Positions 1,874-26,107 of a stretch of 40,713 nt of DNA are shown here, piece after piece. The translations under genes were made by a program, and so were the position numbers. The notes under the pieces are model-generated. The model saw only the letters and a program-made list of their open reading frames with translations, was not told the origin of the DNA and made no database searches. Origin of the DNA: an uncultured Candidatus Saccharibacteria bacterium (GTDB lineage Bacteria > Patescibacteriota > Minisyncoccia > Phycocordibacterales > EsbW-18); contig CAZWLQ010000004.1 in NCBI GenBank assembly GCA_964634615.1, forward strand, positions 730 to 41,442, given 5' to 3'. Position 1 is the stretch's first letter. Each line of letters begins with the position of its first letter.

Positions 1874-4800
1874 ATGAAGCAAAAGTATTTTGCGAAGTAC
1901 AGCGCACCACTTGCCGCACTCCCAAATCTCACGGAGGCGCAGCTGACCTCGTTCCGGTGGCTCATGGAAAAAGGCGCAAAAGATCTCTTCAAAGAATTCT
2001 CGCCAATCACTGACTACTCAAACAAGAAGTTTGAGCTCCATATCACGGATGTGGCCTTCACCGAGCCAACGTTCGATGAACACTTTGCAAAGGAAAACAA
2101 GAAGAGCTATGAGATCCAACTCAAGGCTCGTGTAAAACTCGTCAACAAAACCCTCGGAACCGAAAAAGAGCAGGAAATCTTTCTTGCTGATTTTCCTGTC
2201 CAGACCGACCACGGAACATTCGTCATCAACGGTGTCGAGCGTGTTATCGTGCCACAACTCATTCGCTCATTCGGCGTACTCTTCTCCTCAGCTGAATTCA
2301 AAGGAAAGGAATACTTCGGCGCAAAGGTAATTCCAAGCCGTGGCGCATGGGTTGAAATCGAGACCGAGCCAAACAAGACTCTCCAGGTTCGCATCGACCG
2401 CAAACGAAAATTCCCTGTGACCGAACTCCTCCGTGTCCTTGGTGCACCGACCGACGACGATGTGAAAGCTCTTTTCAAGGGAAATGCAGCAGCGATTGAA
2501 TACATTGAGAAGACGCTTGCAGTTGACCCTGTGCACACTGCGGACGAATCATTTGTTGAGGTCCACAAGAAACTTCGTGATGGTGAACTTGCAACGGTTG
2601 AGAACGCACGCGAGTTCGTTGGTTCTATTTTCAACAACGAGCGCTACGACCTTTCAGAGGTTGGCCGTTTCCGTTTCAATCAGCGCTTTGGTGGCGAGGT
2701 TGATAAAAAATCTCTCCAGGCACGAACGCTCACACTTTCTGACATTGTCACGATTGTGAATCACATTGTGCTCTTGAACGTCACCCCAGGTTCAGAAGCC
2801 GACGACGTTGACGATCTCTCAAGCCGTCGTGTTCGCTATGTTGGTGAGATGCTTCAGCAGAAGATGCGTGTCGGTCTTGCTCGTATGAAGCGAAACATTC
2901 AGGACCGCATGTCGATTATCGAAGCGGACACCACGCTTCCGATGGCGATTGTGAACCCACGTCCGCTCCAAGCGCAAATCAAAGAATTTTACAGCACCAA
3001 CCAGCTTTCACAGTTCATGAGCCAGGAGAACGTGCTTTCAGAAATGGAGCACCTCCGCACGCTTTCAGCCCTTGGACCGGGTGGTTTGTCACGTGAACGC
3101 GCAGGTTTCGAAGTTCGTGACGTGCACGTATCGCACTACGGACGTCTTTGCCCTATTCACACACCAGAAGGTCCAAACATCGGTCTCATTCTCCACCTTG
3201 CGACACACGCGCGCTTGAACGACTTCGGCATTATCGAGACGCCATACGCAAAGGTTGAGAACGGCGTTATCACGAAAGAAATCGTCTATTTGAATGCAAA
3301 AGAAGAAGACAACTACAAGATTGCGCACGCAGCAACCGCGCACGACGATAATGGCAAGATCACCGAAACTCGTGTTGAGGTTCGTGTGAAGGGTCGTCCG
3401 GGCGTTATTTCTCCAAAGGAAGTTGATTTGATCGACGTTGCCTCAAACCAGGCCTACTCAATCGCAACATCATTGATTCCATTCTTGAACCACGACGACG
3501 CGAACCGAGCGCTCATGGGTTCAAACATGCAGAAGCAGGCAGTGCCGTGTGTTCGTCCAGAAGCACCAGTGGTTGCAACCGGTATCGAAGAGCGCGCCGC
3601 AAAGGACTCGGGACGCTTGGTCTACGCTCGTGAAGCGGGAACCGTCAAGAGTGTTGATGCACGAGCAATCGTGATTGAAAACAGCAAGGGTAAGAAAGAT
3701 GAGTACAAACTCATCAACTTTTCTCGAACGAACGGCTTTACCGCTTTCCACCAGCGTCCGGTTGTTTCAGTTGGCGACGCAATCAAGAAGGGGGAATTGC
3801 TCGCAGACACCTCAACATCGGTTGATGGACAGTTGGCGCTTGGACAAAACCTCCTGGTCGCCTTCATGTCATGGTCTGGTAACAACTTTGAAGACGCCAT
3901 CATCATTTCTGAACGATTGGTTCGCGAGAACTACCTTTCATCGATTCACATCGAAGAATTCGCCGTGAACGTTCGTGACACCAAGCTTGGGCCTGAAGTC
4001 ACCACAAACGACATTCCAAACGTCGGTGAATCGAAACTCCGCAACCTCGACGAAGAAGGAATCATCCGCATTGGTTCTGAAGTCCGTCCGGGAGATATCT
4101 TGGTTGGAAAGATTACGCCAAAAGGTGAATCACAATTGACTCCTGAAGAGCGCTTGCTCCGCTCAATCTTTGGTGACAAGGCACGCGACGTGAAAGACAC
4201 CAGCTTGCGCATGGAAGGAGGAAAGCGCGGCCGCATCATCGGTGTAAAAGTATTCTCACGCGAAAATGGTGACCAGCTTGAGAGCGGTATCATCAAGAAG
4301 ATTTACATCGAAGTCGCACAGCTCCGAAACATTTCAGTCGGTGACAAGCTCGCAGGACGACACGGTAACAAGGGTGTTATTTCACGCGTCGTTCCGATGG
4401 AAGACATGCCACGCATGGAAGACGGTACTCCGGTTGACGTTATTTTGACGCCACTTGGTGTGCCATCACGTATGAACCTCGGACAGATCCTCGAACTCCA
4501 CTTGGGACTTGCCGCAAAGACCATGAACTACCAAGCGGTCGTTCCTCCATTTGCAGGTGCGTCAGAAAAAGAAATCAAAGAGGAATTGAAGAATGCAGGG
4601 TTCTCAGAATCAGGAAAGATGAAGCTCTACGATGGTCGCACTGGCGAAGCGTTCGAGCAGGATATCGCGGTTGGATACATGTACATCTTGAAGCTCGAAC
4701 ACATGGTGGAAGACAAGATCCACGTTCGTTCAATCGGGCCGTACTCATTGATTACACAACAGCCACTCGGTGGTAAGGCACAAAACGGTGGTCAGCGATT

Positions 4801-15570: not shown

Positions 15571-16869
15571 TTATCGCTTTGTGACGAATCCAGCAATGCC
15601 GTCTTGTGAGAGTGCGGTTTCGGTTCCTGTCGAAAGTTCTTTTACCGAATAGGTGCCACTTGCAAGCTCCTTGCTACCCACGACCACGATGAACGGCACG
15701 TTCATTTTCTCAGCGGTTTTGATTTGATCACCAAGTTTTGCATCTTTCATCGAAAGCACGACGCGCGCGCCTTGTGCACGAAGTGACTCTGCAACCGCAT
15801 GTGCTTTCAGGCGGTCATTTTCATCAATAACACAGAGCATGATATCAGCGGGAGACTGGTGTTTTGGCAGAAGCCCCCGAATTTCAAGGAAATCTTTTAT
15901 CGTCACGTCTCCCATGCCGAAGCCAACCGCAGGAACACCTTCATCAGAGAAAAGTTCAAGGAGGCGATCGTATCGGCCACCACCAAAGAGTGCGCGGTTA
16001 TTTTCTGGACTCGTATCAAAGAGCTCAAATACGATGCCGGTGTAGTAGTCAAAACCGCGCATCAACGTTGGATCAAATACCACGTTGGTGATGCCCACAC
16101 TGGCCAATCCTGCGATAAGTTGCTCAAGGTCATCAACCCACTTGGTGTCACCAACACAGTGTGGCATGTGTGCGCGGAGCTCGGCGATGTTTTTTGCTCT
16201 GAAGATGTTCAAGAGCATATCCGCGCCAACGCCAAGAATTTTCACAAGCGCTTCTTCGAACTCGCTCTCGCTCATCTTTGCCTTTCGATCAATCAAGCCA
16301 GCTGCGGCACGACGCTCTTCTTCAGTGATAGCAAAACAATCTGTAAAGAGCGTGTGGTACATCGCTCGGTGATTTATCTTCACAACGAAGTCTTGTTTCG
16401 TCGCACCAAATGCTTCCATCACGCGTGATGCAATGGTAATAGTCTCTACTTCGGCAGTAATACCAGGAACACCAAAGATGTCGACATTCAACTGCCAGTG
16501 TTCTCGAAGACGTCCACGCTGTGGGCGTTCATAGCGGAATACGTTCGGGATTGAGAACCAGCGAACAGGGAAGGTAAGCTCACGGCGTTTTCCTGCGATC
16601 ATGCGCGCAACCGTTGGAGTCATCTCTGGACGAAGCGTTACCTGGCGTTCGCCTCGGTCGGTAAAGGTGTAGGTTTGTTCGTTGACGTGTTCTTCGTTGG
16701 TTTTTGCGGAATAGAGTTCTGCGGGTTCGAGTAACGATGCGTTGTATTCTTCATACCCATAGCGAGCAAGAACAGAACGCCATGTATCAAAGATATAGTT
16801 TTGAATTGCTTGGTCCTCCGGATAAAAATCACGGACACCCTTGTAGGATTCGGTTGAAAGCTTTGTCAT
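15571..16869 (-). CDS. hisS: histidine--tRNA ligase
   Basis: GVRDFYPED, LRPEMTPTVARM, motif 2 FRYERPQRGRLREHWQ and motif 3 FGGGRYD. Confidence 0.95.
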   Translation of the reverse strand: MTKLSTESYKGVRDFYPEDQAIQNYIFDTWRSVLARYGYEEYNASLLEPAELYSAKTNEEHVNEQTYTFTDRGERQVTLRPEMTPTVARMIAGKRRELTFPVRWFSIPNVFRYERPQRGRLREHWQLNVDIFGVPGITAEVETITIASRVMEAFGATKQDFVVKINHRAMYHTLFTDCFAITEEERRAAAGLIDRKAKMSESEFEEALVKILGVGADMLLNIFRAKNIAELRAHMPHCVGDTKWVDDLEQLIAGLASVGITNVVFDPTLMRGFDYYTGIVFELFDTSPENNRALFGGGRYDRLLELFSDEGVPAVGFGMGDVTIKDFLEIRGLLPKHQSPADIMLCVIDENDRLKAHAVAESLRAQGARVVLSMKDAKLGDQIKTAEKMNVPFIVVVGSKELASGTYSVKELSTGTETALSQDGIAGFVTKR

Positions 16870-16896
16870 GTGGCTCTAGTGTACGGAAATTTCGGG

Positions 16897-16926
16897 AAAT
16901 AGAAAAGGCCTCGCCGAAGCGAAGCC
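16897..16926 (-). terminator. rho-independent terminator about 30 nt upstream of the hisS ATG
   Basis: On the - strand, GGCUUCGC-UUCG-GCGAGGCC (8 bp including one G.U, UUCG tetraloop) is followed by UUUUCUAUUU. Confidence 0.7.
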
Positions 16927-17179
16927 CTATGACCGAACTGACCGTGTGGTCAGGGAAGTAAGAACTGCATACGCGCGTCGGTTGAAACGGTTTCCCGTCT
17001 CGTCGTGTTTTAAACGGCTCTCAGAGGCTTCACGACACCGTTTTTGCAGGTCGAACTTCGTCTTGACGAAGCTCGACTCAACGCCTTGTTCAAGGAACCA
17101 CCCCCTCAGCAAGCTCTCCTAGGAGGCAACTGCCGCTCCGATCAGGAGGACAAAAGAGGATGAACCCAACGCACGTACC
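16897..17179 (-). ncRNA. roughly 280-nt structured RNA: hisS leader/attenuator or independent sRNA, class unassigned
   Basis: Promoter at 17213-17186 and terminator at 16926-16897. A 12-bp long-range helix pairs UACGUGCGUUGG (17177-17166) with CCGACGCGCGUA (16981-16970). An 11-12-bp apical hairpin sits at 17076-17051. A GNRA hairpin GAGACGG-GAAA-CCGUUUC sits at 17001-16984, and CUGACC-ACAC-GGUCAG at 16952-16937. Only a 61-aa track ORF (16927..17112, -) falls here, and it has no coding support. Confidence 0.55.
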
Positions 17180-17185
17180 AAAAAC

Positions 17186-17213
17186 ACTCTACTCCCCCTC
17201 TCTTAATAGTCAA
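17186..17213 (-). promoter_or_regulatory. sigma70-type promoter candidate
   Basis: On the - strand: TTGACT (17213-17208), 16-nt spacer, TAGAGT (17191-17186). It starts 4 nt after the priA stop. The predicted +1 is near 17179. Confidence 0.45.
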
Positions 17214-17216
17214 CTC

Positions 17217-19133
17217 CTACAACAAACTTTCCGGCCCCACCTCAACCCGATACACCGGCGGAAGATTTTTTAAGCTTTCTTCAAGCGCCTCATTCGGCCA
17301 CTCGCTTGAGGGAATCTGAAGCAAGGCATGTGCGACAAACGAGCCTTTTATTTTTGAAACGAACGCAGGATACACAGAAATCGAATGGGGAGCGAAACGC
17401 TCTTTGAGCACTTCCAAATGTTCCATGACATCTTTTTGCTTTCCTTGAAGTGTGATTTTAATCGGAACACCATATGGAGGATAGGAGAACATTTTTCGTC
17501 GCTCATCTTCGCTTTTGAAGAACGCTAACCCGTCTCCTGCAAGTGCCATACGGAGTGTTTCTTGTTCAGGGCTCCTCGTTTGAACAATTAAACGTTTTAC
17601 CGTAATTTCTCGCATGAATGAAAGGAGATCAAAAAGTCGTTCTTGCATAAAAACATCCGGAAGCATTAGGAGTGTATCGAATGATGCGATAACCGATGTG
17701 TGCGGATTAACATCGCGGAGGTAGGGAAGCGCCCGCACGGTGCCGATTAAAATTCCGTTTGTGGATTCCCTCCAAGCGTTCATTATTTTCATCGCGTCGG
17801 CATGGCTCTTTGCGGTATCGTTTGAGAGAAGAAAGAGCGGCGCTTCTTTTTTGTATGACTTTAATAGGTCGTGGATTTTTTCAACCCCCATGCCGTATGC
17901 GTAGAGTCGCCATCCGCCACACGTGCCGCAGACGGTTTTTGCATCACGCTCCCTACCACACCGGTGACATGCAAAGTGTCTCCCTTCGATATCGCGCTCT
18001 CCTTGTTTTGGAAGATGCAGGACCATCGGCGCATCGCATCGGTCACAGGTAAGAACCGTGCCACAGTCCCTGCAGAGCGTCAGTGGTGTGTGACCCTTTC
18101 GCGTTGCGTAGATGAAGCTTCGCTCACCGCCTTCGATGGATCGACGGATAGCATCGGTTGCCTGCGGTGAGAGAACCGGTGACTCTCCTTGTGCGTGAGG
18201 AACCTCACGCATATCAACAAGTGACACCGCAGCGTTAGTTTGTTGATGCATCTGCGGTTTCAATACTTCTTCGTATTCATGCGCAAACGTTTTTGCAAGC
18301 GTCTCAATGCGAGCATAGGTATCACCAAAAATCACATCTACTCCTGCATGTCGTGCGAGCGATGTGATAACGCGTCGCGCGTCAATAAAAGGGCGTTCAG
18401 ATGATTTGTAGTAGGTCGATGATTCGTGTTCGACAATGTAGTGTGCGATGTCATGACGCCACACACTCAATGCAACGGTTGTGCCAACCACGAGAGTTGG
18501 ATCGTCGTGGGTCATCGCATGTTCCCATTGCTCACGCTGTTGTTTTGGTGTCATCGCGCTCGCTAAAAGAAATGAGTGGTCTTCAACACCTCGAGAAAGT
18601 TTTGTGAATACATCATCCGCTTCAGCCCGAGTCGGCGCGATAACAATTACTGATTTCTTTCGTGCGAATGATTCGCGAATGATGCTTCTGTAACGCGCAA
18701 GTCGCTCCTCATACGGGAGCTGAATCACGCGAGGAATCGTGTGAAGGTCATCTCTCTGATGTGTTGGTGGAACGCTTTCAAGAACACGTATGAAGTTTGT
18801 TGCCTGCATGAGTCCTTGCGGCAAGATACTGTAGAGTACCGTTCCGAGTGGCGCGGCATAGTAGTGCGAAAGATCGTTCGCGGCATGGATGAGTGCATTT
18901 GGAAGCGCTCGGGAAAGTAAAACGCGTTTTACTTTCTTCAATGCGTACGCTGCGCGACGGATATCGCTCGCATTTTCTGTTGCCTCCGTTACGGAAACAA
19001 CAAGCGCCGGCGCGTATTTTTTACGAATAGGGACTTCTACAAGCGCCCCCTCTTCCACGGGCAAGCTTGTGTAGTAGGAAAGGAGTTCTGGTGCAACACC
19101 ACGGAGAATCGGTACAACTGAAAGTATCTTCAT
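17217..19133 (-). CDS. priA: primosomal protein N' (PriA) homologue with degenerate ATPase motifs
   Basis: The ATG at 19133 is preferred (MKILSVVPIL). PriA-type Cys-rich zinc block CRDCG..CDRCD..CHRCG..CGTCGG, and overall collinearity with PriA. No GxGK(T/S) is present anywhere. VEHES sits where DEEH is expected. Confidence 0.85.
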   Translation of the reverse strand: MKILSVVPILRGVAPELLSYYTSLPVEEGALVEVPIRKKYAPALVVSVTEATENASDIRRAAYALKKVKRVLLSRALPNALIHAANDLSHYYAAPLGTVLYSILPQGLMQATNFIRVLESVPPTHQRDDLHTIPRVIQLPYEERLARYRSIIRESFARKKSVIVIAPTRAEADDVFTKLSRGVEDHSFLLASAMTPKQQREQWEHAMTHDDPTLVVGTTVALSVWRHDIAHYIVEHESSTYYKSSERPFIDARRVITSLARHAGVDVIFGDTYARIETLAKTFAHEYEEVLKPQMHQQTNAAVSLVDMREVPHAQGESPVLSPQATDAIRRSIEGGERSFIYATRKGHTPLTLCRDCGTVLTCDRCDAPMVLHLPKQGERDIEGRHFACHRCGRERDAKTVCGTCGGWRLYAYGMGVEKIHDLLKSYKKEAPLFLLSNDTAKSHADAMKIMNAWRESTNGILIGTVRALPYLRDVNPHTSVIASFDTLLMLPDVFMQERLFDLLSFMREITVKRLIVQTRSPEQETLRMALAGDGLAFFKSEDERRKMFSYPPYGVPIKITLQGKQKDVMEHLEVLKERFAPHSISVYPAFVSKIKGSFVAHALLQIPSSEWPNEALEESLKNLPPVYRVEVGPESLL

Positions 19134-19240
19134 AGTGAAATGTCGTGGGGTCATTTTAGCACGAGGCATCAGCGAGCCATGAATGGGCCTCTATATCGAT
19201 GTTTCGCGGTCGTTCGACTCTCTAGTATCATGATCTCTGC

Positions 19241-23032: not shown

Positions 23033-23536
23033 ATGAACTCTCAAGAAAATCAAACACGAACACTCCGTATCACCGTTGGTATCGCTATTCTCGTTGTTGT
23101 TGTCGGTGCTATTTGGTACATGACACGATCGTCCGGAGACGATTTTGAGTTTAACGCTGCAACAACGACACGCTCTGGAGATGATACTCGTGCTATCGCG
23201 GGACAAAGCCAAAACATCATCGTGTACGCACCGCGAATGAATGAGCGTGTTGGAACACCAGTGATTGTTGAAGGTGAAGCCCGTGTATTTGAGAATGTGG
23301 TGAATTACCGACTTGTTGATGCAAATGGCAAAGAACTTGCAGAAGGGTTTGCAACTGCAGATGCTCCTGACATAGGACAATTCGGTGCATTCCGTGGCGA
23401 ATTGAATTATGTATCAAATGCTGATCAGAAAGGAACCGTCGAAATCTTCTGGTATTCGGCAAAAGACGGTTCAGAAGTTGATAAAGTCACTATTCCCGTA
23501 ACGATTACCAAGACACCTGAATTCATCAAGGGGTAA
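23033..23536 (+). CDS. membrane-anchored Gmad2-type immunoglobulin-like domain protein
   Basis: Transmembrane anchor ITVGIAILVVVVGAIWY. IIVYAPRMNERVGTPVIVEGEARVFENVVNYRLVDANGKELAEGFATA...GAFRGEL matches the Gmad2 pattern as I recall it. Confidence 0.7.
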   Translation: MNSQENQTRTLRITVGIAILVVVVGAIWYMTRSSGDDFEFNAATTTRSGDDTRAIAGQSQNIIVYAPRMNERVGTPVIVEGEARVFENVVNYRLVDANGKELAEGFATADAPDIGQFGAFRGELNYVSNADQKGTVEIFWYSAKDGSEVDKVTIPVTITKTPEFIKG

Positions 23537-23639: not shown

Positions 23640-23667
23640 TTGACAAATAAATTGCGGGCGCTATAAT
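23640..23667 (+). promoter_or_regulatory. near-consensus sigma70 promoter
   Basis: TTGACA (23640-23645), 16-nt spacer, TATAAT (23662-23667). This is the best promoter match in the window. Confidence 0.75.
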
Positions 23668-23673
23668 ACGCCC

Positions 23674-24032
23674 AGGAAGCTGCCCGGATGCACCGGCCAA
23701 CAGCTATCCGCGCGGAGATCAACTCGATGATGCGGAACCAGTTCACCTAAACGTAACGCCGGCGCGACAAGAGGCTGCCATAGCCAAGCGGTGGAGCAAC
23801 CAGCGGGCAATTGCTCGGAAGACGGTTGTTGCACCGTGAACAAACGATGGAAGAGCGCGTAGTAGGGATCGTCGGCCGAAGCACGCGTGGCGAGTTAACC
23901 CTCTCCCGTAATTGCCGAGTCACCATTGCCACCATCGTGCAGTAAGCAAGTGCGCGAGCCGTTCTCTCTCGAGCGCGACTCCCAGCTTGTGAACACCCCC
24001 TCCGGACTTCGGTTCGGGGGGATTTTCTTTTT
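23674..24032 (+). ncRNA. roughly 360-nt G+C-rich structured RNA, class unassigned
   Basis: It runs from the predicted +1 to a C5/G6 hairpin plus UUUUCUUUUU (23996-24032). There is no + strand ORF of 60 aa or more. 5' AAGCUG (23677-23682) pairs with CAGCUU (23983-23988). Verified local helices include 23684-23696, 23773-23785, 23794-23816, 23789-23836 and 23844-23872. Confidence 0.65.
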
Positions 24033-24038
24033 GCTACA

Positions 24039-24716
24039 ATGCCTCTCATGACCCCCGCAAAACTCCTCGAGCGAAAGAAACGATTCATTGCCTTCAACAA
24101 GGTTTTAAAGAAACTCTACCCTGAAGCAAAAATTGCCCTCAATTTCAAAAATAACTGGGAGCTTCTGGTTGCGGTTGAACTCTCTGCTCAATGCACTGAT
24201 AAAAAAGTGAATGAAGTCACCGCAACGCTTTTCAAAAAGTACAAAACACTCGACGATTACGTGAACGCAACGTTTGAGGAGTTCTCTCAAGATATCCGTC
24301 AAACCGGTTTTTTCAATAACAAGGCAAAGAATATTCTCGCGGCTGCCAAAATGGTTCGCGATCAATTTAAAGGAAAACTTCCAAAGACGATGGGGGAGAT
24401 ACTTACAATCCCTGGTGTTGCTCGGAAGACCGGCAACGTGGTGCTTGGAAATGCATACGGAGTCGTCGAAGGCATCGCGGTTGATACCCATATCAAACGC
24501 TTTTCACAAAAGTTTGATTTAACCGATCATAAAGACCCCGTAAAAATCGAACGCGATTTGATGGAGATTATTCCAAAAGATGAATGGTTTGGTTTTACGT
24601 ACCGCTTGATTGATTATGGCCGCGCTATTTGCAAAGCAAACCAACACGATTGTGCAGAGCACCCACTCACAAAAATCTACCCGAAAGCAGCGCATGTCTG
24701 GCCGAAAGCGAGATAA
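24039..24716 (+). CDS. nth: endonuclease III (HhH-GPD DNA glycosylase/AP lyase)
   Basis: LLVAVELSAQCTDKKVN, the HhH-GPD segment LTIPGVARKTGNVVL, and VDTHIKR. ATG 24048 is an alternative start. Confidence 0.9.
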   Translation: MPLMTPAKLLERKKRFIAFNKVLKKLYPEAKIALNFKNNWELLVAVELSAQCTDKKVNEVTATLFKKYKTLDDYVNATFEEFSQDIRQTGFFNNKAKNILAAAKMVRDQFKGKLPKTMGEILTIPGVARKTGNVVLGNAYGVVEGIAVDTHIKRFSQKFDLTDHKDPVKIERDLMEIIPKDEWFGFTYRLIDYGRAICKANQHDCAEHPLTKIYPKAAHVWPKAR

Positions 24717-24810: not shown

Positions 24811-24832
24811 AAATCAGTACACTTGAGGCGAT

Positions 24833-26107
24833 ATGAGGTATCCAACGCCTAAACGAAGCATTCTAAAAAACGGCATTCGTCTCATCACGATTCCTATGCC
24901 GACCTCTCCAACAGTTACAGTGACCGTACTCGTTGAGGCGGGTTCGCGTTACGAGACAAAACAAGACAATGGGCTCTCTCACTTCCTTGAGCACATGTGC
25001 TTTAAGGGCACCACAAAGCGCCCGACATCTGCCATTATCACCCGCGAACTCGAGATGATTGGCGCCGAATATAACGCGTTCACCGGTGAAGAAATGACTG
25101 GCTATTGGGCAAAAGCTCGCACGAAGCACTTCGACGACATTCTTGATGTGGTATCAGACATTTACCTCGATCCACTGTTGCCGGAAGTCGAGCTTGAAAA
25201 AGAGCGTGGCGTGATTATCGAAGAAATCAATATGTACGAAGATCTTCCACAGCGGAAGGTTCACGATGTACTTGACGAACTGATGTACGGTGACCAGCCA
25301 GCAGGTCGCTCCGTCATTGGACCAAAAGAAAACATTAGGCGTTTTGCTCGCGCCGATTTCGTCCGCTATCGAGATCTCCACTACGTTGGAACAAAAACAG
25401 CCATCATAATCGCAGGCGGTTTTAGCAATACAGAGATGGTTGCGCACGCAAAGAAATATTTTAGTACTGCACGAAAAGGAAAAGGTGGTATGCGTCGGCG
25501 CACAAAAGAAAAGCAAGCTACACCTGCACTCCTGCACAAAGAGAAGGCAACCGACCAGACACATTTTGTGCTGGGTTTCAGAAGCTATCCGCTTCGCGAT
25601 AAGCGACAAATGACACTTCGCCTGCTTGCGGCGGTTCTTGGTAAAGGAATGAGCTCTCGTCTTTTTTTGAAGCTCCGTGAAGAGATGGGTGTGTGTTATT
25701 ACGTTCGCGCGAATCAAGAAAGCATGACCGACACCGGTGTGTTTAAAATTTCTGCAGGTCTCGACAGCACGCGTGTCGAAGAGGTCATCGAGGCAATTAT
25801 TGATGAGGCACAGAAACTTCGCGATGTTCCGGTATCACTCGACGAACTCACGAAAGTAAAAGAAATGATTATTGGTGCAATCGCAATGGGTCTTGAAACA
25901 TCAGATCAGGTCGCTGATTGGTATCACGATGAGATACTTCGCCAACCACTGAAAACTCCCGCGGAAATCGTCAAGGAAATTCAGGCGGTAACGCCAGCTC
26001 AGATTCAAAAAGTGGCACAAGATATCTTTGTGAACAAAAAATTGAATCTCGCGCTCGTAGGACCGAAGCGTAATCTTACACAACTTAAAAAAGTTGCACG
26101 CCTATGA
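24833..26107 (+). CDS. M16-family (pitrilysin/insulinase-like) zinc peptidase
   Basis: HxxEH zinc site in GLSHFLEHMCFKGTTKR. 424 aa, with no signal peptide. Confidence 0.9.
   Translation: MRYPTPKRSILKNGIRLITIPMPTSPTVTVTVLVEAGSRYETKQDNGLSHFLEHMCFKGTTKRPTSAIITRELEMIGAEYNAFTGEEMTGYWAKARTKHFDDILDVVSDIYLDPLLPEVELEKERGVIIEEINMYEDLPQRKVHDVLDELMYGDQPAGRSVIGPKENIRRFARADFVRYRDLHYVGTKTAIIIAGGFSNTEMVAHAKKYFSTARKGKGGMRRRTKEKQATPALLHKEKATDQTHFVLGFRSYPLRDKRQMTLRLLAAVLGKGMSSRLFLKLREEMGVCYYVRANQESMTDTGVFKISAGLDSTRVEEVIEAIIDEAQKLRDVPVSLDELTKVKEMIIGAIAMGLETSDQVADWYHDEILRQPLKTPAEIVKEIQAVTPAQIQKVAQDIFVNKKLNLALVGPKRNLTQLKKVARL

Follow-up and report, generated by a model that had tools for sequence, protein, structure and literature searches.

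The spacer between priA and hisS in the window, by which the whole 40,713-nt stretch of DNA analysed here is meant, holds a predicted structured non-coding RNA of ~285 nt, with its own promoter and terminator and under selection. This RNA is outside all known families and is present in a single small lineage only. We consider it probable that it represents an independent, young, genus-level sRNA gene of ~285 nt, belonging to one lineage of Paceibacteria.

The window is a part of the core genome of a member of Patescibacteria (CPR; Paceibacteria/Parcubacteria type), and genome scans based on HisS match only MAGs of that group. The housekeeping genes present in it are trmD, rpoB, rpoC, dnaG, rpoD, bacA, hisS, priA, and aroA, as well as mreB, alaS, rpsM, rpsK, rpsD, rpoA, rpsI, grpE, and dnaK. 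The RNA spacer is flanked upstream by priA (17217-19169, minus strand) and downstream by hisS (15571-16869, minus strand, with the ATG at 16869), the distance between the two genes on that strand being 347 nt. At the other end of hisS, an RNase H-like gene has its listed TTG start at 15596, overlapping the 3' end of hisS by 26 nt (window 15571-15596); in relatives the start of this gene is called 2-62 nt past the hisS stop, so that the true start of the window gene is probably located further downstream.

In all of the sequence that was searched there are only three distinct homologous spacers, namely those of the window, L081, and L001. The spacer sequence of the window is also found in L090 (and its contig in SRR12762296), L081 and L082 are identical, and L001 is also present as L091. 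Compared to the window, HisS is 91% identical in L081/L082 and 83% identical in L001. Both of the other homologues keep the two hexamers of the promoter, the helix that closes the structure, hairpins of 7 bp and 6 bp, and the terminator, each of which is described below.

The promoter TTGACT-16-TAGAGT, proposed in the sequence-only reading, is indeed located at 17213-17186, where it begins 3 nt past the priA stop and is the sole promoter-like match of the promoter scan in 1.1 kb. On the minus strand, its -35 hexamer TTGACT occupies 17208-17213 and its -10 hexamer TAGAGT occupies 17186-17191. The hexamers are kept in all three homologues, with GTTGAC invariant in the -35 region and with the -10 sequence reading TAAAGT in L081 and TATACT in L001, which leaves the pattern TAxAxT unchanged, whereas the 16-17 nt between the hexamers are unrelated in sequence. 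Hexamers kept around a diverged spacer, as seen in the alignment, are the mark of a real promoter. The start of transcription predicted from it would lie at ~17179-17177, at the first base of the closing helix P1.

At the other end of the RNA, the predicted intrinsic terminator comprises positions 16895-16928 of the minus strand. Its 10-pair stem (16928-16905) includes GGCUUCGC-UUCG-GCGAGGCC and is followed by UUUUCUAUUU, and this combination of a GC-rich stem with a U-tract, ending ~27-35 nt before the hisS ATG, has a hairpin energy of -16.2 kcal/mol. The terminator of L001 is found at the same place as GGUCUGCC/GGCAGGCC, differing from GGCUUCGC/GCGAGGCC by two pairs in which both bases are swapped, and the UUCG terminator that had been described before hisS is therefore not only present in the window, but also compensated in this homologue. 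An own promoter, an own intrinsic terminator, and a non-coding sequence between them, three of the features by which a stand-alone sRNA gene is recognized, are all found here.

The fold of the 286-nt RNA has an MFE of -117.6 kcal/mol (z = -3.97), and none of 200 dinucleotide shuffles is as stable. L081 and L001 have z-scores of -4.21 and -2.40, respectively. The whole 5' part is enclosed by P1, with the 5' strand GUACGUGCGUUGG at 17166-17178 and the 3' strand CCGACGCGCGUAU at 16969-16981 of the minus strand, both assigned from the MFE fold and the alignment. The arms of P1 are ~185 nt apart. The 12-bp core of this helix, formed by UACGUGCGUUGG (17177-17166) and CCGACGCGCGUA (16981-16970), corresponds to the closing helix recognized in the sequence-only reading; it is extended to 13 bp in the MFE fold (17178-17166 with 16981-16969) and has the support of covariation.

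Within P1, the first element is P2 (17098-17163, minus strand, from fold and conservation), with the stem UCAUCCUCUU/GAGGGGGUGG and an apical extension that varies in length from 45 nt in the window to 14 nt in L081 and 24 nt in L001. Its segments CCUCUUU and GAGGGGKUGGU are kept in all three homologues, and a T-box-like string, GGGUGGUUCC (17105-17096), is part of this element, being the 3' strand of P2. The junction motif GAACAAGG that follows (17084-17091, minus strand) reads GAACARGG in each of the three aligned homologues, although its pairing partner differs between the sequences in the three folds. P3a, a variable 12-bp hairpin assigned from the fold at 17050-17077, has its place taken in L081 and L001 by a hairpin of unrelated sequence. 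The next hairpin, P3b (17012-17043, also from the fold), is variable as well and carries the antiterminator candidate GUGAAGCCU (17033-17025). P4 (16984-17001), a 7-bp hairpin with a GAAA loop that is supported by both fold and covariation, is positioned directly 5' of the 3' strand of P1. Two of these hairpins, the 12-bp one at 17077-17050 and the one with the GAAA loop at 17001-16984, had been recognized before from the sequence and recur in the present fold. The junction strands kept in the 5' domain are GAGGGGKUGGU, GAACARGG, and the A-rich CCGAUGA.

The region between P1 and the terminator is built differently. A linker, GCAGUUCUUACUUCC (16954-16968, minus strand), remains single-stranded in each of the three MFE folds and includes the segment UGCAGUUCUU, which is invariant in the alignment; this linker may be considered a candidate seed or protein-binding segment. 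The linker is followed by the tail hairpin CUGACC-ACAC-GGUCAG (16938-16953, minus strand), found in both alignment and fold, whose 6 bp are invariant except that the basal pair, C-G in two of the sequences, is replaced by U-A in L001.

Covariation in these helices provides evidence that the structure is maintained. Across the 16 columns of P1, the 7 bp of P4, and the 6 bp of the tail hairpin, all 85 of 85 cells pair, and seven pairs are changed on both sides. Four of the pairs changed on both sides, and another four changed on one side only, belong to the 16-column helix of P1, in which every cell is paired; all cells are likewise paired in P4, with two of its seven pairs changed on both sides. 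This level of pairing for the three helices is reached by only 2 of 500 column shuffles, and it falls to 21-37% in a control in which the partner strand is slid by 1-3 columns. These statistics are thin, as there are three distinct sequences only, and the interior of the RNA is not reliably alignable.

Divergence at neutral sites provides the scale against which this conservation is to be read. In the three pairwise comparisons, identity at four-fold degenerate positions of hisS amounts to 56%, 47%, and 40%, whereas the 3'-terminal 149 nt of the spacer are 82% identical between the window and L081. The interior of the RNA, in turn, is approximately as diverged as neutral sites and yet folds into hairpins, differing drastically even between genomes in which HisS is 91% identical. 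The 82% identity at the 3' end and the perfect helices, set against 40-56% at neutral sites, therefore argue for selection acting on RNA, and on this comparative evidence the spacer encodes a selected, structured RNA. A question attached to the sequence-only reading, namely whether the helices are conserved upstream of hisS in relatives, can be answered in this way: they are kept and covary in two homologues, and they are absent where HisS is 60-67% identical.

No family in Rfam, T-box included, matches any part of the window at the gathering score. When the spacers of the window, L081, and L001 are compared with Rfam at E<=10, there is no match to a T-box, riboswitch, 6S, SRP, RNase P, ribozyme, or tmRNA model, and the weak matches that do appear (SorY, istR, isrO) are driven by the terminator hairpin. 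The comparison with the T-box and other leader models of Rfam that had been suggested as a check thus yields no match in any of the three homologues at E<10. ARAGORN finds neither tRNA nor tmRNA in the window. Partial likenesses to a hammerhead, domain 5 of group II introns, P4 of RNase P, and CsrA sites, noted by eye, were rejected, as none corresponds to a model match.

No open reading frame on either strand is common to the three homologues, and the two frames present in the spacer of the window have no match in Pfam. A hydrophobic frame of 22 residues was considered and rejected as coding, since it starts upstream of the predicted start of transcription and is not conserved. In L001, the public HisS call (2860-4299, P0002, 479 aa) begins within the RNA, 141 nt before the conserved ATG, and this early start is probably an annotation artefact created by an open frame running through the spacer.

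The distribution of the RNA is narrow. Among 80 loci retrieved by the HisS-based scan of GTDB genomes, only L001 carries the element, and a HisS search in 5.8 billion proteins yields only P0001 (91%) and P0002 (83%) above 67% identity. Contig look-ups of further loci add no variants of the RNA. The exact pattern of the 3' module has no match in JGI metagenomes or viral contigs, and the exact pattern of the 5' module has four matches in JGI metagenomes, all due to chance on inspection, and none in viral contigs. A blastn comparison of the RNA with collections of phages and plasmids gives no match, no further copy is detected by an nhmmer profile search in 609 kb from 95 related loci, and there is no second copy within the 40-kb window. 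One blastn match of 17-28 nt, in L036, proved to be an unrelated 5'UTR hairpin.

The junction itself appears to be older than the RNA. In L083 (67% HisS identity), L084 and L087 (66%), and L002 (60%), priA and hisS are adjacent without the RNA, separated by gaps of 16-74 nt, and aroA is found upstream of the pair in L083, L084, and L087, where gene calls exist. In most of the 80 Paceibacteria hisS loci, the upstream gap is too short for such an element. The short gaps in syntenic relatives therefore indicate a gain of the RNA along the stem branch of this small lineage. Two of the spacers without the RNA, in L084 (2927-3000) and L087 (2932-3000), each contain a long inverted repeat that has no relation to the element of the window, that of L087 being AACCTATAACCTGTA...TACAGGTTATAGGTT with a T-run ending at the hisS ATG; these repeats may be terminators of priA.

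Downstream of the terminator, hisS is preceded by a putative promoter of its own (16878-16906, minus strand), composed of the weak -35-like sequence TTTTCT (16906-16901), a 17-nt spacer, and the -10 box TACACT (16883-16878), located 8 nt before the ATG. The 35-nt interval between the terminator and the ATG repeats the pattern seen in the upstream promoter: TTTTCT(A) and AAATTTxCGTACACT are kept, whereas variation is found in the middle of the spacer and in the 8-9 nt that precede the ATG. L083 and L002, which have no RNA, also have TACACT 9-10 nt before the hisS ATG, directly past the priA stop, and the -10 box of hisS thus appears to predate the RNA element. The sequence TACACTTGAGGC precedes both hisS in L081 (2985-3000) and, at an equal distance from the ATG, the M16 peptidase gene 24833 of the window (24815-24835), which suggests a common type of promoter and discriminator.

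This arrangement is not peculiar to hisS. Among the 33 genes of the window, 16 have the sequence TANNNT at a distance of 4-12 nt upstream from their start codon (for example, at the starts 12486, 35690, 38225, 24833, and 16869), compared to ~7% expected from hexamer frequency, and a Shine-Dalgarno-like motif is found in two of the 33. The frequent occurrence of the former and the scarcity of the latter point to mRNAs of this genome that are mostly leaderless or near-leaderless, and the position of TACACT suggests that hisS, too, is leaderless, with its own promoter past the terminator of the RNA. Taken together, the evidence favours two units arranged back to back, one consisting of promoter, RNA, and terminator and the other of the hisS promoter and a leaderless hisS.

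The main alternative to such an arrangement is that the RNA is a recently acquired cis-acting leader of hisS, in which the P1-closed domain would sense tRNA-His, histidine, or HisRS and modulate read-through. The layout of the region is that of a classical attenuator, with promoter, structured domain, and terminator in the same orientation and ending ~30 nt before the gene of an aminoacyl-tRNA synthetase; junction-like strands are kept while peripheral stems vary, as they do in aptamers; and the invariant tail hairpin exposes CACA, corresponding to a His codon followed by A. Its restriction to genomes in which HisS is at least 83% identical, with syntenic junctions at 60-67% identity lacking the RNA, would seem to speak against such a leader, but a narrow distribution is not decisive by itself, because attenuators too can be gained. 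T-boxes of hisS are known from Bacilli and Lactobacillales, and other phyla provide cases in which hisS acquired an attenuator or exchanged one type for another (PMC2965389).

It is the details of the RNA that make this alternative unlikely. The pairing proposed in the sequence-only reading as an antiterminator, between 17033-17025 and 16927-16919, does exist in the window (9 bp, -14.5 kcal/mol), but it is not conserved in the two homologues, where the best duplexes with the 5' arm of the terminator have energies of only -12.6 (L081) and -8.1 kcal/mol (L001) and involve positions not homologous to those of the window; no pair of competing folds, one with the terminator and the other with an antiterminator, is common to the three. 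Moreover, P1 and the terminator are ~60 nt apart, a distance that includes the invariant hairpin, and P1 therefore cannot directly gate the terminator in the usual manner of a riboswitch. None of the three folds contains an element resembling Stem I with a specifier loop, and the sole conserved CAC lies 3' of the main domain, as part of the 4-nt loop closed by the tail hairpin, with neither a run of His codons nor a leader peptide in the spacer. The T-box-like GGGUGGU was already judged too far upstream when first noticed, and with ~170 nt between it and the terminator that judgment holds. The absence of matches to T-box or other leader families at E<10 in the three homologues, as well as the presence of a conserved hisS -10 box at a leaderless distance, also in outgroups without the RNA, points in the same direction. 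Thus, of the two possibilities initially offered for this region, a sensing or attenuating leader and a separate sRNA, the former is not supported by family assignment, antiterminator pairing, distribution, or the putative hisS promoter, whereas the latter is now the better supported one. A comparison with the T-box leaders (RF00230) leads to similar conclusions: the window RNA shares with them the location upstream of a synthetase gene, the common orientation, the intrinsic terminator, and the GGGUGGU string, but differs in lacking a model match, Stem I, a specifier loop, and a conserved antiterminator, in having that string inside P2, in being absent from the next relatives, and in the seemingly separate promoter of hisS.

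A divergent housekeeping RNA, for example a 6S-like RNA that binds RNA polymerase, could have been missed by Rfam and be located at other loci in the relatives, and RNAs of CPR bacteria are often divergent. The strong promoter, the paired 5' and 3' ends, and the closed domain of ~210 nt resemble 6S RNA, as does the size of that domain. The folds, however, branch several times instead of forming a rod with a central bubble, an additional 3' tail of ~75 nt contains two hairpins, and there is no match at E<10 to models of 6S, SRP, RNase P, or tmRNA, nor does ARAGORN report anything. Drastic changes of the interior at 91% HisS identity would be out of place in a housekeeping RNA, and the all-or-nothing occurrence at a single syntenic junction has the look of a gain, not of a relocation, which together render this explanation very unlikely. 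Equally, the region might have no function as RNA at all, being a relic of an insert or an expanded spacer that acts as DNA, by terminating priA, promoting hisS, or providing the operator TGACC-N4-GGTCA. The narrow distribution would agree with that, the best-conserved part is the 3' end, beside the hisS promoter, and the tail hairpin is a near-invariant palindrome of 14 bp, as might be expected of a protein-binding site. What DNA function leaves unexplained are the compensatory changes that keep P1 and P4 paired despite nearly saturated neutral divergence, as well as a conserved promoter placed exactly at the 5' end of P1, and we hold this explanation to be highly improbable. The remnant of a MITE or insertion sequence was rejected as well: the element is single-copy in 40 kb of the window and 609 kb of loci, the phage and plasmid collections compared contain no copy, and the inverted repeat formed by P1 does not bound the inserted segment, lying ~35 nt inside its left and ~100 nt inside its right boundary. 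The sequence GTACGTG was tried as a repeated operator and dropped, its four occurrences in the window compared to 2.4 expected being not significant.

The reading as a stand-alone sRNA gene leads to a proposed scheme. The gene would have been gained in the ancestor of one genus-level lineage and placed between the priA stop and a pre-existing -10 box of hisS. A strong promoter of the sigma-70 type would direct transcription from the first base of P1. P1 and the rapidly evolving 5' domain of ~210 nt, comprising P2, the variable hairpins, and P4, would probably serve as a stable scaffold or a binding platform, whereas the far better conserved 3' module, consisting of the linker with UGCAGUUCUU and the tail hairpin, is the part most likely to be active, through pairing with targets or binding of a protein. 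A constitutive terminator would end the RNA, halt read-through from priA, and shield the promoter of hisS from transcription of both priA and the sRNA, and hisS would be transcribed separately from the promoter that abuts the terminator, probably as a leaderless mRNA. Expression of the RNA, constitutive termination, a promoter belonging to hisS, and action in trans or by protein binding are all points that we infer from sequence. Within the window, complements of the linker are no commoner than expected by chance, and the energies of duplexes formed by the linker or the hairpin with the 5' ends of its 33 genes are no better than those of shuffled seeds; these scans refer to the window only, that is, to a small fraction of a genome.

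Among known systems, stand-alone intergenic sRNAs of bacteria resemble the window RNA in having their own conserved promoter and terminator, no open reading frame, a narrow range, and an unpaired segment beside 3' hairpins. The window RNA differs from them in its length (~285 nt) and in the presence of a big 5' domain closed by a helix of 13-16 bp. Such a domain brings to mind small RNAs that are controlled by, or derived from, riboswitches, for example SreA/SreB and EutX/Rli55. In common with those, the RNA has a P1-closed 5' domain of several helices with conserved junctions, followed by a tail and a terminator, and it is predicted to be a separate transcript; in contrast to them, it matches no known aptamer class, and its tail and terminator have no alternative fold linked to P1. 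We can speculate that the 5' domain is a new aptamer, belonging either to a CPR-restricted attenuator of a synthetase gene, responding to tRNA-His or histidine without the architecture of a T-box, or to a ligand-controlled sRNA, although we think that this is quite unlikely. If the domain did bind a ligand or tRNA, the importance of the RNA would rise considerably.

With a range of three genomes, the RNA opens no new regulatory principle at present. A literature search for described small RNAs of CPR bacteria found none, and most of the non-coding RNA repertoire of CPR/Patescibacteria seems to be uncharted. In that setting, a concrete sRNA candidate is provided here, backed by covariation and with defined, if predicted, ends, and the reduced genome that encodes it seems to rely on leaderless mRNAs for almost all of its genes. 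Studies of the origin of sRNA genes should also profit from this example, in which an RNA gene appears as a clean addition to a syntenic junction.

The window contains another unit of similar build, at 23640-24030 on the plus strand, between a gene for a protein with a Gmad2 domain (23033-23536) and an HhH-GPD gene (24039-24716). No Rfam family matches that unit, and, in contrast to the RNA before hisS, it does not fold more stably than shuffled sequence (z = 0.02). It starts with a perfect consensus promoter, TTGACA-16-TATAAT (23640-23667), continues for ~330 nt without a convincing open reading frame, and ends directly before the HhH-GPD gene with a strong terminator that has a UUCG loop (23998-24021) and is followed by ATTTTCTTTT. 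The HhH-GPD gene probably starts at its second ATG, at 24048, with a TACAAT box located 7 nt upstream.
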